Of a stretch of 32,000 nt of DNA, positions 1 to 11,489 are shown piece by piece (positions within the stretch are counted from its first letter, which is position 1; each line of letters opens with the position of its first letter). The translations under genes and the position numbers were made by a program. Source of the DNA: Candidatus Heimdallarchaeota archaeon B3_Heim (GTDB lineage Archaea; Asgardarchaeota; Heimdallarchaeia; Hodarchaeales; Hodarchaeaceae); assembly GCA_003144275.1 (NCBI GenBank), contig NJBF01000001.1, positions 60,001 to 92,000 on the forward strand, written 5' to 3'. The notes beneath the pieces were generated by a model. The model had not been told where the DNA came from, ran no database searches, and was given only the letters and a program-made list of their open reading frames with translations.

Positions 1-491
1 AATCGAATATATTTTATTAAACGAAATTTGATGTCTTTTAGCCAAAATATTCTGTAAAGCTAGTTGTCCCATCTAGCATATTTTCTTTGCTTCCCGATAC
101 TGGTTCAATCATTTTTTGCAACTATATATTTTCTAGCAATTTTTTTTGCCAAAAAATACATTCACAATGGAGTTAATAATTATGCCTATAATAGAATATT
201 TTAGGCATTCTTGAAATATATTAACAAATATTGAATGACTGATCTTTATTATATAACTGAAAGCTTCTAAGGCTTTGTTTCTAATATAGCTATAACATAT
301 TTTTTTAGGCATATATTCTCAGATTTTCTGGAGATTGAATTTAAACAGAAATTTTTTCAAAGATCTTTAGTTACTTAAGTCTCGATATGAATTTAGTCAC
401 CAACATTGGTTATTACACTTCTATAATTTTTTTCAAATTTTCACTGAAAAAAAGATCTAGTGCAGATGAGGCGTACGCCTTTTAATGTCTG

Positions 492-695
492 TTATATAAA
501 AAAAGATTCATCACCTATTCTCATCAATTTCTTATAACGTGAATCTTTCTTTATATTATTTAAGTCAGGATCATCCTTTGCTTCGTCTTTTACTTTATGA
601 TTTAATTCAATTGCCTTAGTTAGACAATCGATACTTTCCTCAATTTTCTTCTGCAATGCAGTGCAACATGCAAGATTATACCAACTCATATACAC
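492..695 (-). pseudogene. C-terminal fragment of a TPR protein
   Basis: WYNLACCTALQKKIEESIDCLTKAIELN followed by AKDDPDLNNIK is a typical last TPR plus cap; TPR-like residues (SLYDKAI) continue in frame upstream of the GTG with no earlier start codon. Confidence 0.6.
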
Positions 696-745
696 TACAT
701 CCTTAAAGATTGCTTTATCATATAGGGAAATTAATGAAGAATGAT

Positions 746-1459
746 CTACGTGATGTTTAAAAGTCTCTTTAAGTTTGTAATGTTCTTTTCATCCTTAATT
801 AAACGTGGTGGAATACTTCTTTGAATTGATCCAGAAATACCCAATAATGTCTCCATATCTGGTGAAACTGTATGATATATTCTACCTATCTTATTCAATT
901 TGGGTTTGCTGATAAGAACAGCTTCTTCTAGTAGTCGACTGTTCCCTTTTTTACCTATCACGATAATAAGATCTTTGGAATGATGGCTTCTCTTGATATG
1001 GGCATTATTAGAAAAAAGTTTGTGATGACTCTTAGCAACACTTCTATTTGTTTGACTAAAATCAATGACTTTATCAACTGTGAAATAACCAATTATATAC
1101 AGCGCTTCTTTGTACTTGTTGGTCTTGTAAGGTGTTAAACCTGCATAAAAAACGAGTAAATCATTCTCAATTAGATTCACTAAATAATTCCTTTTAGAAG
1201 TTGGATCACCATAAGTGAATGTTTCGAATTCTGGATCAAAATGGAATTTTCTAGATGCAACTTTTTTGGGAAGATAATCTGACAGAAATTTACCAGACCT
1301 TCCTATAGTGGTTATAAAAGTTCGATTTTCAGCTGATTCTTTTTTTTCAGAAATTGGAATGTATTCAAATGATCCATCATTAAAAATTGGGGCTAAAGCT
1401 CCATCAGTACCCTTGTCAATCCCGATTCTAAGGAGCATAGCCTTCACGGAGTAATCCAC
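746..1459 (-). CDS. Nucleotide modification-associated domain 3 (Nmad3)-like protein
   Basis: LLRIGIDKG..GALAPIFNDGSFEYIPISE, HFDPEFETFTYGD, DLLVFYAGL, LYIIGYFTV and NNAH match my recollection of the Nmad3 family; true start may be the ATG of MLLRIG (~1438). Confidence 0.75.
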   Translation of the reverse strand: MDYSVKAMLLRIGIDKGTDGALAPIFNDGSFEYIPISEKKESAENRTFITTIGRSGKFLSDYLPKKVASRKFHFDPEFETFTYGDPTSKRNYLVNLIENDLLVFYAGLTPYKTNKYKEALYIIGYFTVDKVIDFSQTNRSVAKSHHKLFSNNAHIKRSHHSKDLIIVIGKKGNSRLLEEAVLISKPKLNKIGRIYHTVSPDMETLLGISGSIQRSIPPRLIKDEKNITNLKRLLNIT

Positions 1460-2133
1460 CTTTTACAATCTTTCTTCTGAAAAACACAGGTGTTTCCTCG
1501 TAAAACCTTGCATGTCTTTCGTTTTTTTGGATTTTGCTTGTCAAGTCTTTTTATATTGCTTATGCATTCATCAATAATGTTTTCATGTCCCTTGAAATGA
1601 GTTAAAATCTTATCAGAAACAGAAGACGATATTTTCTTGTGACGGACGCGTTTATATGTATCTGTTACCATTTCCAGAGGTAGAGAATCTTCAAAAGAGA
1701 ACAAGTAAGTCTTTCCCTTCAAAGCATAATGAGAAGAACAGTTAATAAAATCTTCTTTCACTATATATCCGACAATGTACCTATTTTTGTAGTAATTCTT
1801 TAGATTTTTGTTCCTACACATTGTAAAAAGGAATAAGTACTTCTCATTGCTTCTTAAAAGTGGAAGAATGTTTTTATCCTGATAACAGGGATAAATATAG
1901 TTTTCAGCTCCAATCTCGATATGTGGTTCGGTTTTATGACCTTCTCCCTGTTCATTCAATACATCTCTAACAGGTAAATCCGAGGAAGGAGAATGATAGA
2001 AAAATTGGAGTCGTCCTTTTTCTTCAAGATTAGTTATCAAATTAAAGTCATCTTCAGGTTTCCTTTTCCTTAACGGTTTTGATCTTCCATTTGAACATTT
2101 TTTCTTGGTTTTAGTTCTGCAGGGCATTTTCAA
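1444..2133 (-). CDS. Hypothetical Cys-rich protein, probably distantly related to Nmad2/Nmad3
   Basis: 229-aa ORF abutting the Nmad3 gene; EPHIE and YLFLFT...RYIVGYIV parallel the Nmad3 motifs; C-terminal Cys cluster. Confidence 0.5.
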   Translation of the reverse strand: MKMPCRTKTKKKCSNGRSKPLRKRKPEDDFNLITNLEEKGRLQFFYHSPSSDLPVRDVLNEQGEGHKTEPHIEIGAENYIYPCYQDKNILPLLRSNEKYLFLFTMCRNKNLKNYYKNRYIVGYIVKEDFINCSSHYALKGKTYLFSFEDSLPLEMVTDTYKRVRHKKISSSVSDKILTHFKGHENIIDECISNIKRLDKQNPKKRKTCKVLRGNTCVFQKKDCKRWITP

Positions 2134-2175
2134 TCAGCATATATCGATATTTAATCTCTTTTTAATTAAGAATCT

Positions 2176-2481
2176 TCACAGATATACATTTAATACCCGT
2201 TTTTTCTTAATGTGATCATCTGGCAAATTTTTTAAGAGTGATTCAAGCAATTGGATTAGCGTATTAATAATTGAATCATCAATACTTGTTTTGTGGATAT
2301 AGTAAGAATCTAAAGAAGTGAAAACTGTAGAGAGCAATTTATTATATTCCCAAAGAGTATTTTTCATGTTCACAGGATAATTTTTCACATCATCAAATTT
2401 TGAACCCTTCCAAGATAATTGAGAAGGTTTTCCAGTAGTTACTGCAATTTTACAAAGCTTTTCTACTATTTCAGAATCCAA
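2176..2481 (-). CDS. Hypothetical protein, possibly a gene fragment
   Basis: 101-aa TTG-start ORF co-oriented within the cluster; no recognisable motif. Confidence 0.35.
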   Translation of the reverse strand: MDSEIVEKLCKIAVTTGKPSQLSWKGSKFDDVKNYPVNMKNTLWEYNKLLSTVFTSLDSYYIHKTSIDDSIINTLIQLLESLLKNLPDDHIKKKRVLNVYL

Positions 2482-2631
2482 ATCAAACCCCTTTTTCCCA
2501 TTAATGAAATTGATTATATTTCAGTTGTTAATGATTTAATTTATTTATCATTCTACTCTCTAGACCTGTAAAACTTGTTTCAATGCAGATAATTATTACA
2601 TCTCATTAATTTAAGAAGGATTATATCATTT

Positions 2632-3567
2632 TTATGGAGTTTTATATCTCAGAAAAAGAGGTCTCCATTTCCCTTTTACTTTATCATCTAGAATTCGGGG
2701 TGGCTTATCTCGCCATAAGAAATGAGGAACATTATTACTACATCTATCGGGGAAAACAACAATTGATTGAGAATTATTAAAACCAAGGGCACATTTTTTG
2801 TTTCCATATTTTTGGACAAATTCTTTTACATTCTTTAATTCCTCATCCTTAAAAAAAGATAATAATTTTGAATTATCGTCTAATTCCTTAAAAGAAATCA
2901 CATTAACAAAGTTCCTTTTAAAATTTGATTTTATATTCTTTATTCCTTGTTTATAACCATATAATGTAATAATATATATTTTCACCTTTAATCTATTTCC
3001 AATACCTCTTTTATTTATGAGGTCAGTCAGATAGGTTTTTATTTGATTACCTGATCCAATAGAATCTTCAATGAAAAAAATAGAATCATTCTCTTGAAGT
3101 TTAGTTTTCTCATCAAATTGTCTATAATCTAAATCACAATTCCCACTAATATAATTTAGAAGAAGATCTCCACTCTTGAGTTTTTCACCCTTTTTTATAA
3201 TTCCGAGTAGTGGTTTCTCGTTCTTTTTTTCCTTATTCATTATATTTTCTATCTGAATCACTGCATCTTGACAATAATCCCATATCTCCCTTCTATGTAA
3301 TATTATTAATCGTTCGATGACGTCTAAAGCAGTATCTTGTTCAGTAAATGGGAATAACTTGATAAAAAGCGAGAGTTGACCACGATAAACTCCTTGGTAT
3401 GCAGAAATTTCATAAATCCTATCTGCAATTTTATCTGTTTGATCTCGGTGTCGAAAATACTTTAATGCTCTTAACATTTCCTCAGAAGTGTTCTGTTGTT
3501 GTCGATGGGTTGGCAATAAACTCCCTCCTAGGATAACATTGATACTAACTTTTTCTTTGTAGGCCAT
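2632..3567 (-). CDS. Phosphoribosyltransferase-like protein (conflict-system PRTase-CE type)
   Basis: PRPP-binding-loop motif IFFIEDSIGSGNQ; C-terminal LGFNNSQSIVVF..CSNNVPHFLW and WRPLF.R are typical of this subgroup. Confidence 0.7.
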   Translation of the reverse strand: MAYKEKVSINVILGGSLLPTHRQQQNTSEEMLRALKYFRHRDQTDKIADRIYEISAYQGVYRGQLSLFIKLFPFTEQDTALDVIERLIILHRREIWDYCQDAVIQIENIMNKEKKNEKPLLGIIKKGEKLKSGDLLLNYISGNCDLDYRQFDEKTKLQENDSIFFIEDSIGSGNQIKTYLTDLINKRGIGNRLKVKIYIITLYGYKQGIKNIKSNFKRNFVNVISFKELDDNSKLLSFFKDEELKNVKEFVQKYGNKKCALGFNNSQSIVVFPDRCSNNVPHFLWRDKPPRILDDKVKGKWRPLFLRYKTP

Positions 3568-5126
3568 TCATCTAACATTTCTCTTGACTTATCTGTCAGA
3601 TTTACAAAAACTATTTTTCCTAATCCATCAGTCACAATTCCGTGATTTATTACTGTTTGTTTGTCAATAGGAATTAATTGTTCAATTATTTTATCCAAAT
3701 CAGAAATGTTAATCTTTATTTCAATAAAGAGTTTTCTCTCTTCATCTACATTGAGAATTATGTCATAACCCGATTTTTCTATAGATATTGAATCTTTTCC
3801 CCATCCTGAATTTTCTAAAGATTCTATCACTGACTCTCTAAGGATTTTCTCTGATTCTTGTTTGGAAATATTGAATATAATATTATCTTCTAGTTCAAGG
3901 ATTTTGTTGTAGTCGAGAGCTGTGGAACTTTCAATTTTCTGTAAGAAAAAAGGAGGGATTGGAATTAAAATTTCGCGAAGATCTGTTATGTTAATCTGTT
4001 TAACAAAACCTTTAGCAACACGTTCTAATTGTGGGAAAAATAATTTATCAGCCAAATTACTTACTAAATAACTATACAAATATCTCGATTCTACCTTTTT
4101 ACTTTTTATTACATAAAAACTGTTTGAAGCAAACGCTGGACAATCAACTTCATTTATTAAAACTATTTTCCTAAAATCAAATCCACGAGGTATTAGAATA
4201 TCTCCTGGAATAAGTTTTTGTTTTTCCAGATCTAAATGAAACCATTTTTTCTCTCTTTTTGTAAAATTAAGATCTACATAATCAGTGATATTATGAATTT
4301 TGTGATTATGAACATTCCTAGGTCTAACATAGCCGTATTTACCGTCAGTTAGTAAGTACTTCTTTGGACAGAATAAACCAAATTTGATATTCGCCATTTC
4401 GCCTAATTTTATGGTAGTATAAGTTGCTAGCTCCTCTTCTAGCCTATTATACGTTGGATGGTAATAACTTGGGTCAAAAATTTCATTTTTAATCCTTCTA
4501 GATGTAATAAAAATTCCAGGATCCTCAATCTTTTTATCGGATAAAATTGAATTTAATGAAATTTCTAACTCATTCAAGCTGGATACAATAGAGAATTGTG
4601 TTTTGTTTCCTTTATCTGATAGTATAATAATTGATAAATTGATAAAACTCTCCTTATGGAACTCGATTTTTGGATATGACACTATTCCGTTGACACAATA
4701 ATCGTTATTGATTTTTTGTCTTATTGGTTCTGTACTTTTTAACAGGAGTAGACTTTGAGGAACAATAAACAATAATTTACCTTTGAATTGATAATTTTTA
4801 ATTTTATCAAATGATTCTGCTAGTTGTTTTACTTCCTGTCTTGATATTCTACGAAACCAATATTCATGGGGATATGGATATATAATTATTATATCAAATT
4901 CTTCTCTAATACTTGAATATCTTTGAGTCGCTTTATCCTTCTGTCTTAAAAAATCACTAAGTCTGGGAAGTCTCTGAACTGGAATCCCATAAAGAAGTCC
5001 AATATTCATTTCCGCGTAATCAGAGATACTTGAAGTAATTCTTTCAGTAAAATCATCAAAAAATAGCTTTAATCTAGCAACTGCTTTTTCTAATTCCTTC
5101 ATTATATCCCCTTCAGATATTTCCAA
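3528..5126 (-). CDS. Restriction-modification-like fusion: degenerate N6-MTase C-terminal half + target recognition domain + HsdR_N-type PD-(D/E)xK domain
   Basis: FDIIIIYPYP, GKLLFIVPQSLL and IRQKI (MTase-like); FDPSYY, KLGEMA, PGDILI and YLYSYL (HsdS TRD-like); YDIIL..FIEIK..GIVTDG (HsdR_N-like). Confidence 0.65.
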   Translation of the reverse strand: MEISEGDIMKELEKAVARLKLFFDDFTERITSSISDYAEMNIGLLYGIPVQRLPRLSDFLRQKDKATQRYSSIREEFDIIIIYPYPHEYWFRRISRQEVKQLAESFDKIKNYQFKGKLLFIVPQSLLLLKSTEPIRQKINNDYCVNGIVSYPKIEFHKESFINLSIIILSDKGNKTQFSIVSSLNELEISLNSILSDKKIEDPGIFITSRRIKNEIFDPSYYHPTYNRLEEELATYTTIKLGEMANIKFGLFCPKKYLLTDGKYGYVRPRNVHNHKIHNITDYVDLNFTKREKKWFHLDLEKQKLIPGDILIPRGFDFRKIVLINEVDCPAFASNSFYVIKSKKVESRYLYSYLVSNLADKLFFPQLERVAKGFVKQINITDLREILIPIPPFFLQKIESSTALDYNKILELEDNIIFNISKQESEKILRESVIESLENSGWGKDSISIEKSGYDIILNVDEERKLFIEIKINISDLDKIIEQLIPIDKQTVINHGIVTDGLGKIVFVNLTDKSREMLDEWPTKKKLVSMLS

Positions 5127-5231
5127 TATTAATGCAATCTACTAAAAAAATTCTTCCTATAATAGACTATTCTAGATATTTTTTAATTATCAGAGAAAAA
5201 TGCAAAATACTGTATACGAGAGATTTATATT

Positions 5232-6011
5232 ATGAGCGAATCAAAAGGAAGAGACCAACATGATGATGAGCTGCAAAAGCTAAAAGATACATATATGCTT
5301 ATCAGTCTATTTTCGATTACAGTTGGTAATTTTGCCAAACTTGATTATTTTAGAATGTTTGAAGGTTTCGACAGGTTAGAACAACTTACAGACTCATTAC
5401 CGATCATTTCAATTCCTGATTCAATTCCTGAAGAACATAAAAGGCCATTGTTGATATATCGATTAAAGAAAAACCAACCAAAATTATCTGACCTCACAAC
5501 ACTAATCCGTTCTGCGGTTTCAATAACCGATTTAGGCCGTAAATTATGGTTGAATTCAACAAACAACTTAATTCAATCGTACCTCGATTATTTTGAGCTT
5601 GTCTTTGAGAATTTGGTGGAGCCAATTGTTAAACAGCTTGGCCCTGAAGTACCAAAATATCATTATAAACATAGTTATCAATTTCAAATTAATTGGGTTC
5701 AACAGTGGTTTAAGAAACATAACTTAGATCAGAGTTTGGGGTTATTTATTGAAAAGCTAAATGGATACTTACGTAATGCTTTTGTTCACAATATTTATTA
5801 CGTAACAAAAGAGAGTATAATTTATTTTGCCTACAATCCCAAGACTAAGGAACTTAAAGAGTGTGTATTATCACTCAAAGATTTTGGAAACGATATTGCT
5901 ATTATCATGTTATCTAAACTTGCTTTTTATGTAGTATGTGGATTGAGATTTTTAGAAGTAACCCCTGAGGAACTACGAGAAAACCTAAAGAGAAAGGAAG
6001 AAGAAAATTGA
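5232..6011 (+). CDS. Putative HEPN-domain protein (possible RNase toxin)
   Basis: Helical 259-aa protein with an Rx4H motif (LRNAFVH, 5769-5789) in its C-terminal third. Confidence 0.45.
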   Translation: MSESKGRDQHDDELQKLKDTYMLISLFSITVGNFAKLDYFRMFEGFDRLEQLTDSLPIISIPDSIPEEHKRPLLIYRLKKNQPKLSDLTTLIRSAVSITDLGRKLWLNSTNNLIQSYLDYFELVFENLVEPIVKQLGPEVPKYHYKHSYQFQINWVQQWFKKHNLDQSLGLFIEKLNGYLRNAFVHNIYYVTKESIIYFAYNPKTKELKECVLSLKDFGNDIAIIMLSKLAFYVVCGLRFLEVTPEELRENLKRKEEEN

Positions 6012-6150
6012 AATTCGAATTAAAAATGCTATCAAATCTTTTCAAAAATCAAAATTATCTATCTAGATCAGTATTATCACTGAATCGTATAACGCTGGTT
6101 AATTCGCATACATTGCATAATATCAAAAATAAATTCGATCTTAAAGACAT

Positions 6151-6704
6151 TTATTTTGCTAGCTTACGGTATAAAGGTTTAAGCGCATCCAAAGTTACCT
6201 TCCCAATAGCAATTAATTGTCTTAATGAGACTCTAAAATTTCCTACTATGAAAACGGAAGATGAGTTTAATGCTAACTCCGTTGGCCTTTTTGCATTCCC
6301 GACATGAACACCTCCTTTTACATGTGCTTCATACTTTATTATATCTTTAACCGTTAATATTTCACTTCTAATTTTCATTATTGGTGTGGATAAAAATTCA
6401 TCTATTTTAACGTCTTTAAAGACGTTAGGTGTTCGGGAAGAGGGAGGATACAAACCATCTGTACACTCCAAAAGTCAGGTTCAGGAAATCCTAGAATTTT
6501 GTAATTACGGATTCCTATTCTGAATGTGATATGTAATCTTAATCTTTTGTTTGTTTTATGTATTAAGGCTTCCAATAGGAAAAGTCTAAGAATTGCAGAT
6601 GTTTTTAGAATTTTGTAAGCATCTTTTGAGGAAATATAATTCTCTAAATCCTCATAGTTCCTTTTAAAAATATATTCTTCTTCAATAAGCCTTAATTTTC
6701 TCAC
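6151..6704 (-). pseudogene. Frameshifted hypothetical gene (two ORF-track pieces form one gene)
   Basis: Piece 1 ...PEPDFWSVQ joins piece 2 DGLYPP... if one base is restored near 6460; the joined product ends ...TVKDIIKYEAHVKGGVH... Confidence 0.55.
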
Positions 6705-6854
6705 TTTCCTTTCAATATCTTCTTAATTGTATGAACGATTCAGTATTATTCTTGACACGAACAGATTCTTATTAATCTCAGGGAAAGCTAAAGTTAGATT
6801 TAAAAGGACTCTTTTCGAGTTTATACTTGATGATATTCATGAGATGAAGACTAT

Positions 6855-7391
6855 ATGAAGATCACTGTTCCAGATAAGATTAAAATGACTAATATTCCAC
6901 TTATGGGGATCACAGAAGCGGATATTCTTAAGACGATCCAAACACCTGAATCCAAAGAACGATTCCTACATATGGGATTACAGTTAGAATTCCATTTGAA
7001 GAATATCAGAAAGGGTTATTTACTTGTAGTGACCAGAAATGAAGGTCAGGATATATCAGTAAGTGAGGTCTATCTCATTAAAAGAGTTTTTATACAGCAA
7101 CTTAATACTAAAAATCCGATACAAGTGTTAGAAAGCTTTATTGACAGATTTGGCCTTGAAATTCGTATCGACCGTGAAACTGACAAATTCTTTATAAAAA
7201 AAGCCGTTCCTTTGTCACCAAGTGTTGATCCTACCCGAGCAGTAACTATAATTAATCCAGGCAATCATGAATTTTGGCTTTGTCAATATATCCAAATAAA
7301 CCGAAGTGGTAACTACTTGGTACTTCAAGTAGCAATAGTTTATTGTATAGATATTACAAAATACAAACAATGGATTAGAGAAATGGGTTAA
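6855..7391 (+). CDS. Hypothetical protein
   Basis: 178-aa ATG ORF, co-oriented and 33 nt upstream of the DUF4365 gene. Confidence 0.55.
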   Translation: MKITVPDKIKMTNIPLMGITEADILKTIQTPESKERFLHMGLQLEFHLKNIRKGYLLVVTRNEGQDISVSEVYLIKRVFIQQLNTKNPIQVLESFIDRFGLEIRIDRETDKFFIKKAVPLSPSVDPTRAVTIINPGNHEFWLCQYIQINRSGNYLVLQVAIVYCIDITKYKQWIREMG

Positions 7392-7424
7392 ATTTGTTGG
7401 AAGATTTATGCAGGGAGTGATTCA

Positions 7425-8090
7425 ATGTTTACTGATAAAGATCGTACAGAACGTGAAGGCGTTAATTTTGTAGCCCAGATTGTTAATGAAATGGGTTCAA
7501 TATGGAGGGAAACAACACAAATAGATATTGGAATAGATGGTGAAATAGAATTAGTAGAAGGGAGAAAATCATCTGGATTTTATTATTTTATTCAAATTAA
7601 ATCAGGTGAAAGTTATTTTAAAAATAGGAGTGAAGTCGGCTTTTCCTTTTTCCCTCAAAAAAAGCACATAGAATACTGGAGAAAATTACCACTCCCTGTG
7701 TTAATTATTATTTATTCCCCAAAAAGAAAAAAGGCTTATTGGAATGTTTTTCAACGTTTTTCTTCTGATAAATCAATCCATTTCTCATGGAAGAGCGTTT
7801 TTAATAAAAACACTAAAGAAATTCTCATTAAAAATTATCAAAAAACTGACGCATGGCATAAATATCAAAAGAAGACTAATTTAATCTCCGATATGGAATT
7901 AACGGTATTTAATGCGAAAATATCTTGTATGCAGATTTTAAGTCAACTTCTCCCAGAACCAATACGAGATAAGAGACAGCCCAGCTCTGCTCAAGTAGAA
8001 TCATTCATTTATAGTTTTAATGAGATTTTTAATTTCAAAACGATTAATCTACGAATTATTACATCTGCAGACCTAAAATTTGATAAATAA
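7425..8090 (+). CDS. DUF4365-domain (PD-(D/E)xK-like) protein, probably prematurely terminated
   Basis: TEREGVNFV...WRE..QIDIGIDGEIE...IQIKSGESYF signature; the frame stays open after the TAA to 8432. Confidence 0.75.
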   Translation: MFTDKDRTEREGVNFVAQIVNEMGSIWRETTQIDIGIDGEIELVEGRKSSGFYYFIQIKSGESYFKNRSEVGFSFFPQKKHIEYWRKLPLPVLIIIYSPKRKKAYWNVFQRFSSDKSIHFSWKSVFNKNTKEILIKNYQKTDAWHKYQKKTNLISDMELTVFNAKISCMQILSQLLPEPIRDKRQPSSAQVESFIYSFNEIFNFKTINLRIITSADLKFDK

Positions 8091-8722
8091 TTCGAGTTTT
8101 CTAAGGGAGAAGGGCATACAACGGTTAATATACATGACATCCCGTTTATTCTAGAAAAAGGCAGGGTTTATGCTCTCCTGCATTGGTTTTCGTTTTACAG
8201 GATGCTATTATTCCTCTTTGGTCTCAAACCTGAAGTTGAAATAGAATATTATTCGGGATTGATGGATGGAAAGGAAATAAATATCTTATATGGACAAGTT
8301 GTATACAAAATAGAGATTGTTAAACCGAGTATTAAATTTAATAAACTTATTCCAACAGGGATACAAAGAGGGAAAGTTAAAATATCTGTTATTACTGATA
8401 ATTTTAAAATCGGTGCTTATGATAAAGCTTAGTTCAGTTTTTAATAAAAAATTTTATCACATATCAGTAATTGATAGCTCAGTGAAGAAACGCAAATTTA
8501 ACGACACTTTTCTAGGGTTACACTTTACGAAAGAGATGTTTATCGTTGGTTAATGAACACTTTTCCTTTTCTAGGCGCTAACTTAGATGAAGCGGACGGA
8601 TTCGCTGGTAATTCTGATTACATTAACTAATACCTCCCAAATGATTATCACTTTTGGTAGCATGGAAAAAAGATTATGTTCCGCTGTATATTAAAAAAAC
8701 ATAATTTCTGATATATGATATT

Positions 8723-9874
8723 TTATTGTAAATACAATTGATCCTCCCATGTAGATATTTTATCAGAACCTCCCTCTTTCGTCTTCTTATCAGAAAACTG
8801 TATAAAACAAGGAGAAGGGGTGATTCGACCAATAATTAATGCATTACCTTGATTGAACTCTTTTGCTTTATCGATGAAATGAGAAGGAACATAACTAAAA
8901 GTATCTTTGATTACATCTAAATTGGTATTACTTGCCATTTGGAGTAGTATTAAATTACCACATTGAGTTAATATATGTTCGTGAATCTTTGAGGGTATTT
9001 GAGATGATATTATCATATAGATTCCATATTTACGCCCTTCTCCTGCAATCAATTTACCATATTCAAGAGTAGATTCATTACCAAACTTTTTAGGTTTATT
9101 AGGAAAAAGATGATGAGCTTCATCTACAACTATAAATGTAGGTTTGTTGTTTATCTCTTTTTTGGAATGTTGACGCCAAACTTCCTTAAGTATCTTATTT
9201 GCTACCAAATTCCTTTCTTTATAGTTAAAATAAGATAGATCTATAATCGAGTTTCCTTCATGAGAGATTAAATCATTTATACTTGTACCGCTAGACATAA
9301 AAAGTAGTGATTCATGAATTTTAGATCTTTTCATACGAGTTGTTAATATTGGGTTAACACCTGTGAAAATATTTATTATTTGTTCAACACTTGGATTATT
9401 TCGTTTATTAAAAATTTTGAACGCTGTATTTAGATCCTCGAAGAGTTTTGTGTCTATTATTGGATCAATTTCTAATAGTTCTGCAGCATCAGATACTTCA
9501 AGATCTTGAAACTTCAAAGAAAGTGAATTTTTGATCCGTGAATCATTAGAAACTATATTAAGTTCTTTTGTTTCATTACGAAGATGAAATCTATGAAATT
9601 CATCTGAATCCAAAACTCTGAAATTGAGTGATGAATGAATATAATTGGAAAAATTCTTCTTACAACGCCTCTCAACTATTTTAATTTGTTCAGTATCAGA
9701 GTCAAAGCTCGAATCACTCTTATCTATCAAAATCTTGAGTTTTGTTTCAAAAAGGAAATGCTGATCTTTATCTAAAAATCCTAAAAGCAGGTCAAAAAGA
9801 ATTTCTTTGCTTTTATCTTCTAAATGATAAGTTGAGTAAGAAAAAGAAATATTTAATTTATGCCTATTTTTCAT
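8723..9874 (-). CDS. HerA/FtsK-family ATPase-like protein lacking Walker A
   Basis: Walker B FIVVDEAHHLFP, EGRKYG, SQIPSKI, TQCGNLI and EGGSD; no GxxGxGK[ST] in the ORF. Confidence 0.7.
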   Translation of the reverse strand: MKNRHKLNISFSYSTYHLEDKSKEILFDLLLGFLDKDQHFLFETKLKILIDKSDSSFDSDTEQIKIVERRCKKNFSNYIHSSLNFRVLDSDEFHRFHLRNETKELNIVSNDSRIKNSLSLKFQDLEVSDAAELLEIDPIIDTKLFEDLNTAFKIFNKRNNPSVEQIINIFTGVNPILTTRMKRSKIHESLLFMSSGTSINDLISHEGNSIIDLSYFNYKERNLVANKILKEVWRQHSKKEINNKPTFIVVDEAHHLFPNKPKKFGNESTLEYGKLIAGEGRKYGIYMIISSQIPSKIHEHILTQCGNLILLQMASNTNLDVIKDTFSYVPSHFIDKAKEFNQGNALIIGRITPSPCFIQFSDKKTKEGGSDKISTWEDQLYLQ

Positions 9875-9977
9875 ATATCAAGTATATTCCAATCTCATCT
9901 TTAGATAAATTGTGCAGAACGAGTAAATAGTAATTAAAAAGGCTATTGATCCTTAACTATTCTCCAGGTGTTATGAT

Positions 9978-11489
9978 TTGGTAAATGACTTAATTTCGAC
10001 TCTTGAAATGTCTATCGCTGATGTAAATGCAGATTATCTTGGAGTAAAAAGAATAATTTTGATGGAAAACGCTGGAAGGGGGTTAGCTGAATTTATATGG
10101 GAAATTTGTAACGAAAAATATTGTTCATCTATCGTTATTATTGCAGGGAAAGGCGGGAATGGGGGCGATGGGATGGTTGCAGCACGTCATCTCGCCAATA
10201 AAGCTAAAGTTTCTCTTTATTTAGTAGGGGCAAAAGAGGATATCAAGAAAGATTCAACCCGAAAAAATTGGAAGATTCTAGAGAATCTATCACATTCTAT
10301 TAACGTAAAGGAAGTAAGCGATCCTGTAGATTTAAATAAAATAAATATCAGTAAAAAAACAATAATTGTTGATGCACTATTTGGAACTGGAGTTCGTGGA
10401 GAAATTACTGGTCATTATTCCAAAGTTATCTCCTATATTAATTCATGCGAAACGAAAGGGGCTATTATAATATGTGTTGACACACCCTCTGGAATCAATC
10501 CGAATACTGGTCAAAAAGCCAATATTTTCGTTAAAGGTCATTATACAGCAGTTTTTCATAAACAGAAACAAGGTTTAACAGCAGAGAATTCAGGCAAAAT
10601 TAAGGTCATTTCAATTGGAATTCCTCCAGAAGCAGAATTTATTGTTGGTCCTGGAGATCTTTTGGCGCTTTCTAATAAAAAGAAATGGGTGAAAAAAGGA
10701 GATCAAGGAAAAATACTCGTCATAGGGGGAAATGAAAAATATTCTGGAGCCCCAGCTCTAGCAGCTATGGGGGCCCTACAAGCAGGTTCAGATTTAGTGA
10801 CAATAATTGCTCCTAAACACGTTTCACATGCTATTCGTTCCTACACTCCAGAGTTTATAGTCGATAGCTATCCATCCTCCCACCTAACAACTGAATCACT
10901 ACCTTTTCAACAAATGAAAGAAACTGATTCAATAGTACTAGGGCCCGGATTAGGACGTCATCCTGATACGCAAAAAGCAGTAGATAAAATTCTTAAATTC
11001 ACAAAAACACATGATATTCCATTAGTTATAGATGCAGATGCATTACATCTTATTAACCGATCTCAATTGTACTCAAAGGTTATTCTTACACCTCATGCGG
11101 GAGAGTTTGCAGTTCTAACTGGAATCACCTTACCTTCTGGTTTTTCTTCATTTTCAGAGAGATTAAATGCAGTATTAAAAGCAACTAAAGATTCTCCCGC
11201 GGTATGGCTAGTTAAGGGGCCATGGGATATCATATCTCGTTCTGAGAAGTATAAGATTAATAAATCTGGTGTACCTGAAATGTCACGTGGGGGTACTGGA
11301 GATATTCTTGCAGGTTTAACCGCAGGATTTGCAACCAAAACAAAAAATCTTTTCTATGCAGCCACGATTTCGGCATTTATTAACGGGAAAGCTGGGGAAC
11401 TTTCTCGTAGGGATTTTTCCACATCAAATTTGCTAACAAAAATACCCGAAGCACTGCAATCTAGTTGGAATTTTATCTCTGAAGATTAG
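9978..11489 (+). CDS. nnr: Bifunctional NAD(P)H-hydrate epimerase/dehydratase
   Basis: LMENAG, GKGGNGGDG, VDALFGTG, D.PSG; YSGAP, GPGLG, VIDADAL, TPHAGEF, GGTGDILAG. Confidence 0.95.
   Translation: MVNDLISTLEMSIADVNADYLGVKRIILMENAGRGLAEFIWEICNEKYCSSIVIIAGKGGNGGDGMVAARHLANKAKVSLYLVGAKEDIKKDSTRKNWKILENLSHSINVKEVSDPVDLNKINISKKTIIVDALFGTGVRGEITGHYSKVISYINSCETKGAIIICVDTPSGINPNTGQKANIFVKGHYTAVFHKQKQGLTAENSGKIKVISIGIPPEAEFIVGPGDLLALSNKKKWVKKGDQGKILVIGGNEKYSGAPALAAMGALQAGSDLVTIIAPKHVSHAIRSYTPEFIVDSYPSSHLTTESLPFQQMKETDSIVLGPGLGRHPDTQKAVDKILKFTKTHDIPLVIDADALHLINRSQLYSKVILTPHAGEFAVLTGITLPSGFSSFSERLNAVLKATKDSPAVWLVKGPWDIISRSEKYKINKSGVPEMSRGGTGDILAGLTAGFATKTKNLFYAATISAFINGKAGELSRRDFSTSNLLTKIPEALQSSWNFISED

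Follow-up and report, generated by a model that had tools for sequence, protein, structure and literature searches.

Two coupled gene pairs on a genomic island of an Asgard archaeon, one a candidate module of a dead-methylase nuclease and a retron-type PRTase-CE protein

Gene organization and co-occurrence

In a 32,000-nucleotide (nt) stretch of Candidatus Heimdallarchaeota archaeon B3_Heim (GenBank assembly GCA_003144275.1, contig NJBF01000001.1, positions 60,001 to 92,000), referred to throughout as the window, calling of open reading frames (ORFs) places five co-oriented ORFs on the minus strand: P0001 (3528-5126), P0002 (2632-3567), P0003 (2176-2481), P0004 (1444-2133), and P0005 (746-1459). 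An initial annotation of this DNA had located these five genes correctly and proposed that they constitute a single undescribed defense or DNA modification system. We found that they probably form two independent, translationally coupled two-gene modules and an orphan ORF, P0003. Module A (P0001 and P0002) is read with moderate confidence as a sensor/nuclease-plus-effector pair: P0001 joins the remnant of a methylase to one target-recognition domain (TRD) and a PD-(D/E)xK nuclease domain, and P0002 belongs to the PRTase-CE family of phosphoribosyltransferase (PRTase) proteins, as does the effector of type III-A retrons. Module A is compact, with two genes in about 2.5 kb, and belongs to a rare, unnamed family that we consider a candidate anti-virus family. 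Module B (P0004 and P0005) couples a cysteine-rich protein to an Nmad3 protein.

The two halves of the cluster were not found together elsewhere. At 69 Nmad3 genome loci, no P0001, P0002, or P0003 relative lay within 8 kb. At seven further places with the Cys-rich partner (six of them with an adjacent Nmad3 gene), the called genes included no PRTase or TRD family, and approximately 24 P0001-family loci lacked an Nmad3 protein, a Cys-rich partner, and a PRTase even at E ≤ 10. At the closest relative of the Nmad pair (87 to 89% identity), the upstream gene encodes an Mrr_cat nuclease, not the 101-amino-acid (aa) ORF P0003 or a PRTase. The single system envisaged at first would attach or read a DNA base modification derived from phosphoribosyl pyrophosphate (PRPP) or another non-methyl modification. 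The co-orientation and close spacing of the five genes and their arrival within one island are in line with such a system, and the predicted EVE/ASCH-like folds of Nmad3 and its partner would suit modified-base reading. However, besides the failure of the two halves to co-occur, the orphan ORF is separated by 150 nt from the stop codon of the PRTase gene and by 48 nt from the ATG that follows, the GC contents of the halves lie slightly apart (33% versus 29 to 30%), and no glycosylase, transferase-to-DNA, or protective enzyme was identified. Since co-occurrence in other genomes had been set beforehand as the deciding observation and was seen at none of these loci, we regard a five-gene system as very improbable, and no evidence for a PRPP-derived DNA modification was found.

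Within each pair, the reading frames overlap. The 40-nt overlap of P0001 and P0002 (3528-3567) is robust: ATG 3567 is the sole ATG, GTG, or TTG among the first 16 codons of P0002, leaving the PRTase gene no alternative start. The second overlap is real but shorter than first described, as the 16-nt version (1444-1459) belongs only to the longest-ORF form of the Nmad3 gene. Nmad3 homologs start at MKAM, which puts the P0005 start at GTG 1447-1445, so that the P0004 stop codon and the P0005 start share the 4 nt GTGA. P0003 had no match in Pfam, PADLOC, NCBIfam, or PHROG and no relative in any fetched locus.

The P0001 family and its downstream partners

An exhaustive search of 1.84 billion representative proteins returned 212 matches to P0001, for which a word-based search had yielded almost no relatives. 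Approximately 30 representative clusters share its length and three-part layout at 21 to 31% identity, which makes this a rare family. In 20 of the 21 metagenome loci with downstream DNA present, the family member is followed at a spacing of -50 to +2 nt by a gene that we call B; in the exception (L099), B lies 1.8 kb further downstream. The B proteins form one coiled-coil family of 298 to 330 aa with two invariant blocks, ELCRAxENEF and YRNPxAHP, the latter an R-x4-H pattern that may recall HEPN domains. B had no match in Pfam, PADLOC, or NCBIfam, and a PDB sequence search returned coiled-coil noise only. The last ∼270 aa of 758-aa active-looking methylase-TRD proteins are, however, homologous to B (hhalign 99.8%, E = 4.8e-30, 259 columns). 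This fusion of B to a TRD module is the best evidence that a P0001-family gene and the gene downstream of it work together. Module A fits the same two-gene layout, having an abutting, co-oriented downstream partner.

In the window, the partner is not B. Maximum-likelihood analysis placed P0001 in one clade with P0250, whose abutting partner is a DUF6602 protein, and P0251, whose abutting partner is an HNH nuclease (support 100/99). The three members of this clade thus have three different partners, with PRTase-CE in the window only, and at least two of these partners are known defense effector types. The validated single-gene defense Damona has a DUF6602 domain, which is described as RmuC-like (bioRxiv 10.1101/2024.07.02.601686). 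P0251 is encoded in G068, a genome of the same genus, and also on a JAUUVJ01 contig of assembly GCA_030589605.1. Full-length P0001-family members occur in 2 of 400 Asgard genomes, this one and another of the same genus, which has the HNH version.

The breadth of the family bears on whether P0001 is decaying cargo, that is, a degraded type IIG or type I enzyme without present function. Its methyltransferase motifs are lost and its branch is long, as such decay would predict. Yet the truncated architecture is kept in the ∼30 clusters at 21 to 31% identity, with the nuclease motif conserved and the frames intact, and what true decay looks like is exemplified by another locus: at L098:5884-7400, a family member is broken up into two ORFs of 413 and 98 aa with B still next, a copy that is probably frameshifted and decaying. 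Decay of P0001 itself therefore seems improbable to us.

Several other observations concern the family at large. P0247 to P0249, together with many matches of 730 to 765 aa, are single-chain proteins of N6_Mtase, TRD, and coiled-coil/B-domain composition; their C-terminal domain, for which Pfam has no model, contains a conserved R-x4-H motif of the FRNRAAHP type. Four P0001-family loci adjoin type I restriction-modification (RM) genes; a TRD common to the family members and the adjacent HsdS was considered and rejected, since identities were 21 to 26% for adjacent and cross-locus pairs alike. Matches of 480 aa in four genomes (G300 to G303) were not counted as family members: they cover methylase and TRD positions only, from about residue 170, and have the appearance of common methylase-TRD proteins followed by another gene. 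The sole annotation of one main-branch member, from Butyrivibrio, is "restriction endonuclease subunit S." Relatives of the family's main branch were absent from viral contigs, and those of P0262 were absent from plasmid and phage collections.

Domain architecture of P0001

All three domain assignments of P0001 made initially were borne out, the methylase in part. The TRD is matched by PF01420 (Methylase_S; 34.3 bits against a cutoff of 22, E = 3.4e-08) and by PADLOC type I specificity models. The C-terminal piece, scanned alone, matches NOV_C (23.5 bits against 22.1), and its D-ExK motif (D455, E469, and K471) is intact, with D455 and E469 at least 90% conserved in the family. For structural comparison, we used a model of P0001 built on an alignment of 31 relatives (predicted local distance difference test [pLDDT] score of 76, with residues 1 to 92 at low confidence); a single-sequence fold was discarded (pLDDT 31). 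The nuclease domain (residues 420 to 532) resembles the HsdR fragment 3h1t (Z 10.6, root mean square deviation of 3.1 over 109 residues), followed by BsaXI (Z 8.3) and Hjc (Z 7.7). From the D-ExK motif on a predicted restriction-endonuclease-like fold, the nuclease is apparently active.

The methyltransferase-like part has the fold of a gamma-class N6-adenine methyltransferase, of which only the rear half is present. Foldseek searches with the P0001 model matched CamA, M.BseCI, M.TaqI, and BpuSI, and over residues 70 to 399, M.TaqI and CamA each aligned with a Z of 12.2. Over residues 227 to 400, the TRD matched Esub1 (Z 16.3, the highest) and HsdS 1yf2 (Z 12.7). By BLAST, residues 116 to 392 align to residues 171 to 430 of a 758-aa N6_Mtase plus Methylase_S protein at 27% identity. 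At the motif IV position, P0001 reads FDIIIIYPYP, i.e., YPYP and not (D/N)PP(Y/F), and this position is unconserved among its relatives. Residues 1 to 75 are predicted, at low confidence, to be helical and leave no room for motifs I to III. PF02384 finds at least 20 other genes in this genome, and P0001 is not among them. Given the loss of motif IV, N-terminal helices unable to hold motifs I to III, and the lack of a PF02384 match, the sequence and the model indicate that P0001 is not an active gamma-class N6-adenine methyltransferase or type IIG enzyme.

P0002 and its relation to retron effectors

The assignment of P0002 as a PRTase was confirmed: PF24390 (PRTase-CE) matches with 107.8 bits against a cutoff of 27 (E = 1.1e-30), the PADLOC model PRTase_III-A matches with an E value of 6.8e-25, and its neighbors in the Atlas are all PRTase-CE. 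The PRPP loop FFIEDSIGSGNQ (3043-3078, residues 164 to 175) is intact and corresponds to VVILTDTIGSGNQ of the Retron-Eco11 effector, and a G-x14-SNNxP motif lies at 2725-2784. The PRPP loop and G-x14-(P/S)NNxP are the two motifs described for the Eco11 effector, the activation of which lowers PRPP by ∼50% (PMC12746101). A PDB sequence search with P0002 returned nothing, and the DS-32 PRTase-like anti-phage protein model (NF053875) scored 29.8 bits against a cutoff of 250. Plasmids carried distant, half-length matches only. Neither Pfam nor PADLOC scans detected a reverse transcriptase domain in any ORF of positions 1 to 10000, and Rfam gave no match in this interval at E ≤ 0.1, retron RNAs being thinly covered by Rfam. 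Cofolding of P0001 (alignment based) with P0002 gave scores of 0.52, 0.00, and 0.00, which speak neither for nor against binding.

PRTase-CE genes occur in many other settings, for example with a reverse transcriptase as neighbor on a Shigella plasmid and with SIR2 nearby in Rhizobium, and the domain is also fused to TOPRIM, HD, or winged helix-turn-helix (wHTH) domains. P0001 might thus be a self-sufficient solitary restriction-type nuclease, possibly modification dependent, that an independent single-gene PRTase-CE effector merely abuts; the intact D-ExK motif of P0001 would accord with this, as would the many contexts and fusions of PRTase-CE. However, the 40-nt overlap offers no alternative start codon, and the family-wide abutting partner and the fusion of B to a methylase-TRD protein argue for joint function. 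In addition, the Eco11 PRTase effector is not toxic alone and becomes so once the retron complex senses a phage helicase (PMC12746101). We consider such independence of the two genes unlikely. Module A could also be a toxin-antitoxin or addiction pair that stabilizes the island and has no anti-virus role, a view suggested by overlapping genes on a mobile island and by the fact that retron PRTase effectors are kept inactive by their partners (PMC12746101). Plain addiction, though, needs no sequence-reading TRD, and the partners in the sister clade are defense-typical nucleases, and we give this explanation little credence.

Proposed model for module A

We favor a model in which the two modules lie side by side in a 9.88-kb island acquired by this strain and module A acts on its own as a sensor/nuclease-plus-effector pair. 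P0001 would have retained a DNA-reading scaffold, made of the rear half of the catalytic domain and the TRD, with the S-adenosylmethionine-binding and catalytic motifs lost. This dead methylase/TRD may read foreign DNA by sequence or by modification state, and the nuclease of P0001 would then cut the foreign DNA or signal. The gene downstream of a P0001-family member would encode an exchangeable effector, here a retron-type PRTase-CE protein that might bind P0001 and, as in Retron-Eco11, consume PRPP and abort infection. Of the possibilities raised initially, that of a DNA-sensing nuclease paired with a nucleotide-depleting effector survives for P0001 and P0002 and does not extend to the other genes. 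The specific PRPP-depletion mechanism, drawn by analogy with Eco11, is tentative. Similarly speculative is a wider proposal in which P0001-family proteins are RM-derived immune sensors of an undescribed class whose dead methyltransferase/TRD reads DNA and licenses interchangeable effectors (B with its R-x4-H pattern, HNH, a DUF6602 nuclease, or a PRPP-consuming PRTase-CE), with the window holding the first Asgard PRTase-CE abortive-infection module without a retron.

A number of observations weigh against this model. The pairing of P0001 with PRTase-CE was seen once only, and no other family member has a PRTase partner. A single weak partial match aside, no relative of P0002 turned up in 399 other Asgard genomes, nor did the metagenome scan yield one. 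The P0001 branch is long (2.17), which makes its tree position less secure. No mechanism of self-protection was found for module A: a query for a second TRD resembling that of P0001 in this genome matched P0001 alone at E ≤ 1 and thus revealed no protecting methylase that shares its TRD. Because P0001 has kept its own nuclease motif, a separate effector may be unnecessary. Finally, the 101-aa ORF P0003 could join both modules in one transcript.

If module A works as proposed, RM parts have been recycled such that a non-methylating methylase is kept as a DNA reader, and one DNA reader has been wired to different killing or starving devices. Retron-type PRTase effectors would then be driven in Asgard archaea by a protein sensor and not by a reverse transcriptase with multicopy single-stranded DNA (msDNA). 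To our knowledge, almost nothing about immunity in Asgard archaea has been tested. Coordinates of the genes, the P0001 domains, and the island repeat are given in Table 1.

Table 1. Features of the two modules and of the island boundary, in window coordinates
Feature	Coordinates	Strand	Start and length	Description
P0001, module A gene 1	3528..5126	-	Probable start ATG 5102, 524 aa	Dead-methylase remnant, one TRD, and PD-(D/E)xK nuclease
P0002, module A gene 2	2632..3567	-	311 aa	PRTase-CE
P0003	2176..2481	-	TTG start, 101 aa	Orphan ORF between modules
P0004, module B gene 1	1444..2127	-	227 aa from probable start ATG 2127	Cys-rich Nmad3 partner
P0005, module B gene 2	746..1447	-	233 aa from GTG 1447	Nmad3
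Gamma-class N6-adenine methyltransferase remnant of P0001	4422..4904	-	Residues ∼75-235	Rear half of domain; no motif I
Single target-recognition domain of P0001	3879..4421	-	Residues 236-416	PF01420, PADLOC type I specificity models, fold matches
PD-(D/E)xK nuclease domain of P0001	3531..3869	-	Residues 420-532	D455, E469, and K471 encoded within 3714-3767
Right copy of imperfect direct repeat	9813..9829			Left copy 65-79 nt before window start

Module B, an Nmad3 gene with a Cys-rich partner

Of the two proteins initially called Nmad type, P0005 is one and P0004 is not. PF18754 (Nmad3) matches P0005 with 95 bits against a cutoff of 27 (E = 7.3e-27). P0005 has more than 2,000 homologs, of which the 120 listed are mostly ∼60% identical and share many invariant polar residues, and its identity to 20 aligned Nmad3-annotated homologs is 59 to 68%. 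P0004 (a 229-aa ORF), which occupies the position of Nmad2 in the pair, gave no Pfam match at E ≤ 10, with the Nmad models included, and neither did 20 of its relatives. Its hhalign probability was 1% against Nmad3 and 0.3% against three Nmad2 proteins. The P0004 family has 143 homologs, unnamed and without a Pfam domain, with conserved Cys residues and a HKTEPHIEIGAENY block. An apparent link between P0004 and Nmad3 in jackhmmer, which pulled in all Nmad3 proteins, was rejected: a hybrid ORF at locus L071 had contaminated the profile, and the clean hhalign comparison was negative. That ORF (P0214, 300 aa, L071:787-1689) consists of an N-terminal part of the Cys-rich family and a C-terminal part equivalent to Nmad3 residues 112 to 236, and represents a natural hybrid or else a fusion caused by deletion.

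P0004 and Nmad3 have structural neighbors in common according to their Atlas models, at marginal TM scores of 0.41 to 0.66. These neighbors include EVE-, ASCH-, and Nmad2-containing clusters and proteins that carry an EVE/ASCH/Nmad2-type domain fused to a NucS_C, TIR, PLD, HNH, GIY-YIG, or PD-(D/E)xK domain. The resemblance of the predicted folds to PUA/EVE-type readers of modified bases is offered as a lead only. PDB sequence searches with Nmad3 and with P0004 returned nothing.

Module B is a separate, widespread, mobile pair. A P0004-family gene lies directly 5′ of Nmad3, with spacings from a 4-nt overlap to a 5-nt gap, at five loci (L001, L111, L112, L113, and L109), and the contexts of the pair are unrelated (an integrase and a Rep gene, a transposase, a group II intron, or a 1,422-aa protein of unknown nature). 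At one archaeal locus, the P0004-family gene is apparently split into two ORFs just 5′ of Nmad3, and on one Promethearchaeia contig the partner gene has no called Nmad3 neighbor. At other loci, Nmad2 fills the partner position; new in the window is that an unnamed family takes this position instead. In Methanobacteriaceae (L011 to L068, ∼50 species), Nmad3 stands without Nmad2 or the Cys-rich partner among neighbors that are not conserved, which suggests that Nmad3 is able to work alone. Viral contigs held no relative of this Nmad3 group. In a Hodarchaeota metagenome-assembled genome, an Nmad3 gene is divergent from a true Nmad2 gene (L069:4162-4776, minus strand, and 4942-5219, plus strand); module A in its HNH version is present on a different contig of the same genome (L079).

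The island and its other genes

All five genes lie inside a 9.88-kb low-GC insertion spanning window positions -79 to 9829 (C57:59921-69829), with a GC content of 30.3% compared to 36.1% for the rest of the window. Three sister genomes (G063, G060, and G061) lack the insertion, and in them window position 9813 follows immediately on the DNA located 65 nt ahead of the start of the window; the flanks in G063 are 95% identical at the nucleotide level. The island is bounded by an imperfect 15- to 17-nt direct repeat, the left copy of which is TTATCCTATATAATA and the right copy TTATCTTCTAAATGATA; the empty site in G063 reads TTATCCTATATGATA. No integrase was recognized in the island, and it contains no hsdM or hsdR.

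Several orphan genes are carried on the island. Two of them overlap (5232-6011 and 6008-6307, plus strand; 259 and 99 aa), are divergent from P0001, and have no library match. A DUF4365 protein (7425-8090, plus strand; 97 bits) follows a 178-aa orphan (6855-7391, plus strand); DUF4365 is the N-terminal domain of the integron-cassette defense gene Divona (bioRxiv 10.1101/2024.07.02.601686). At 8723-9874 on the minus strand lies a gene for a 383-aa ATPase, of which anti-phage HerA models match the C-terminal ∼140 residues only; its other matches are to PHROG terminase, Zot, and FtsK-like families, and it could be the island's own DNA-translocating ATPase. The genome as a whole (G000) has at least 20 PF02384 N6_Mtase matches over many contigs and is unusually rich in RM-type genes.

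Comparison with known systems

Searches against catalogued systems (PADLOC 2023 and NCBIfam 2026) gave matches at the level of the TRD and of the PRTase only and no system match, so that the early statement that no named system has this combination holds against these collections. MAD5, a subunit of the MADS system (NF047740), scored 20.9 bits against a cutoff of 400, in the TRD region only. Module A resembles parts of type IIG and type I systems in fold and the type III-A retron in its effector, and it fails the defining features of each, with no active methylase, no motor, and no reverse transcriptase.

For module B, the nearest known arrangement is the Nmad2-Nmad3 cassette (PF18753 and PF18754), with which it shares Nmad3, a tightly coupled Cys-containing 5′ partner, mobile and variable contexts, and PUA/EVE-like predicted folds. 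In contrast to that cassette, the partner in the window belongs to a separate sequence family without a Pfam model and has no profile similarity to Nmad2.

For P0002, the closest counterpart is the type III-A retron effector of Retron-Eco11 (PMC12746101), which is likewise of the PRTase-CE family matched by PRTase_III-A and has both the PRPP loop (xxxxEDSIGSGNQ) and the G-x14-(P/S)NNxP motif. Unlike the retron, the window has no reverse transcriptase ORF in positions 1 to 10000 and no fused or recognizable wHTH; the partner is instead a dead-methylase/TRD/nuclease protein, and the host is archaeal.

P0001 has folds in common with M.TaqI, CamA, BpuSI, HsdS, and the HsdR nuclease domain (Z of ∼12 for the methylase half and TRD; Z of 10.6 for the nuclease). 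It differs from gamma-class methyltransferases and type IIG or type I parts in lacking motif I and a PF02384 match and in having YPYP for motif IV. In addition, its nuclease is C terminal, its TRD is single, and neither a motor nor a cognate methylase sharing the TRD accompanies it. Compared to HsdS of type I RM systems, it has one TRD instead of two separated by conserved helical regions, on an island free of hsdM and hsdR. The 758-aa N6_Mtase, Methylase_S, and B fusions (P0247 to P0249) resemble P0001 in the rear methylase half and TRD (27% identity), and their C terminus is homologous to the family's B partner. These fusions, however, keep an active-looking methylase (PF02384 and PF05175) and have no PD-(D/E)xK domain, whereas the window has PRTase-CE in the place of B. 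The domains of Damona (DUF6602) and of HNH restriction-type nucleases, which are absent from the window, fill the partner slot in the two nearest relatives of P0001 and are relevant here as evidence that this slot holds effectors.

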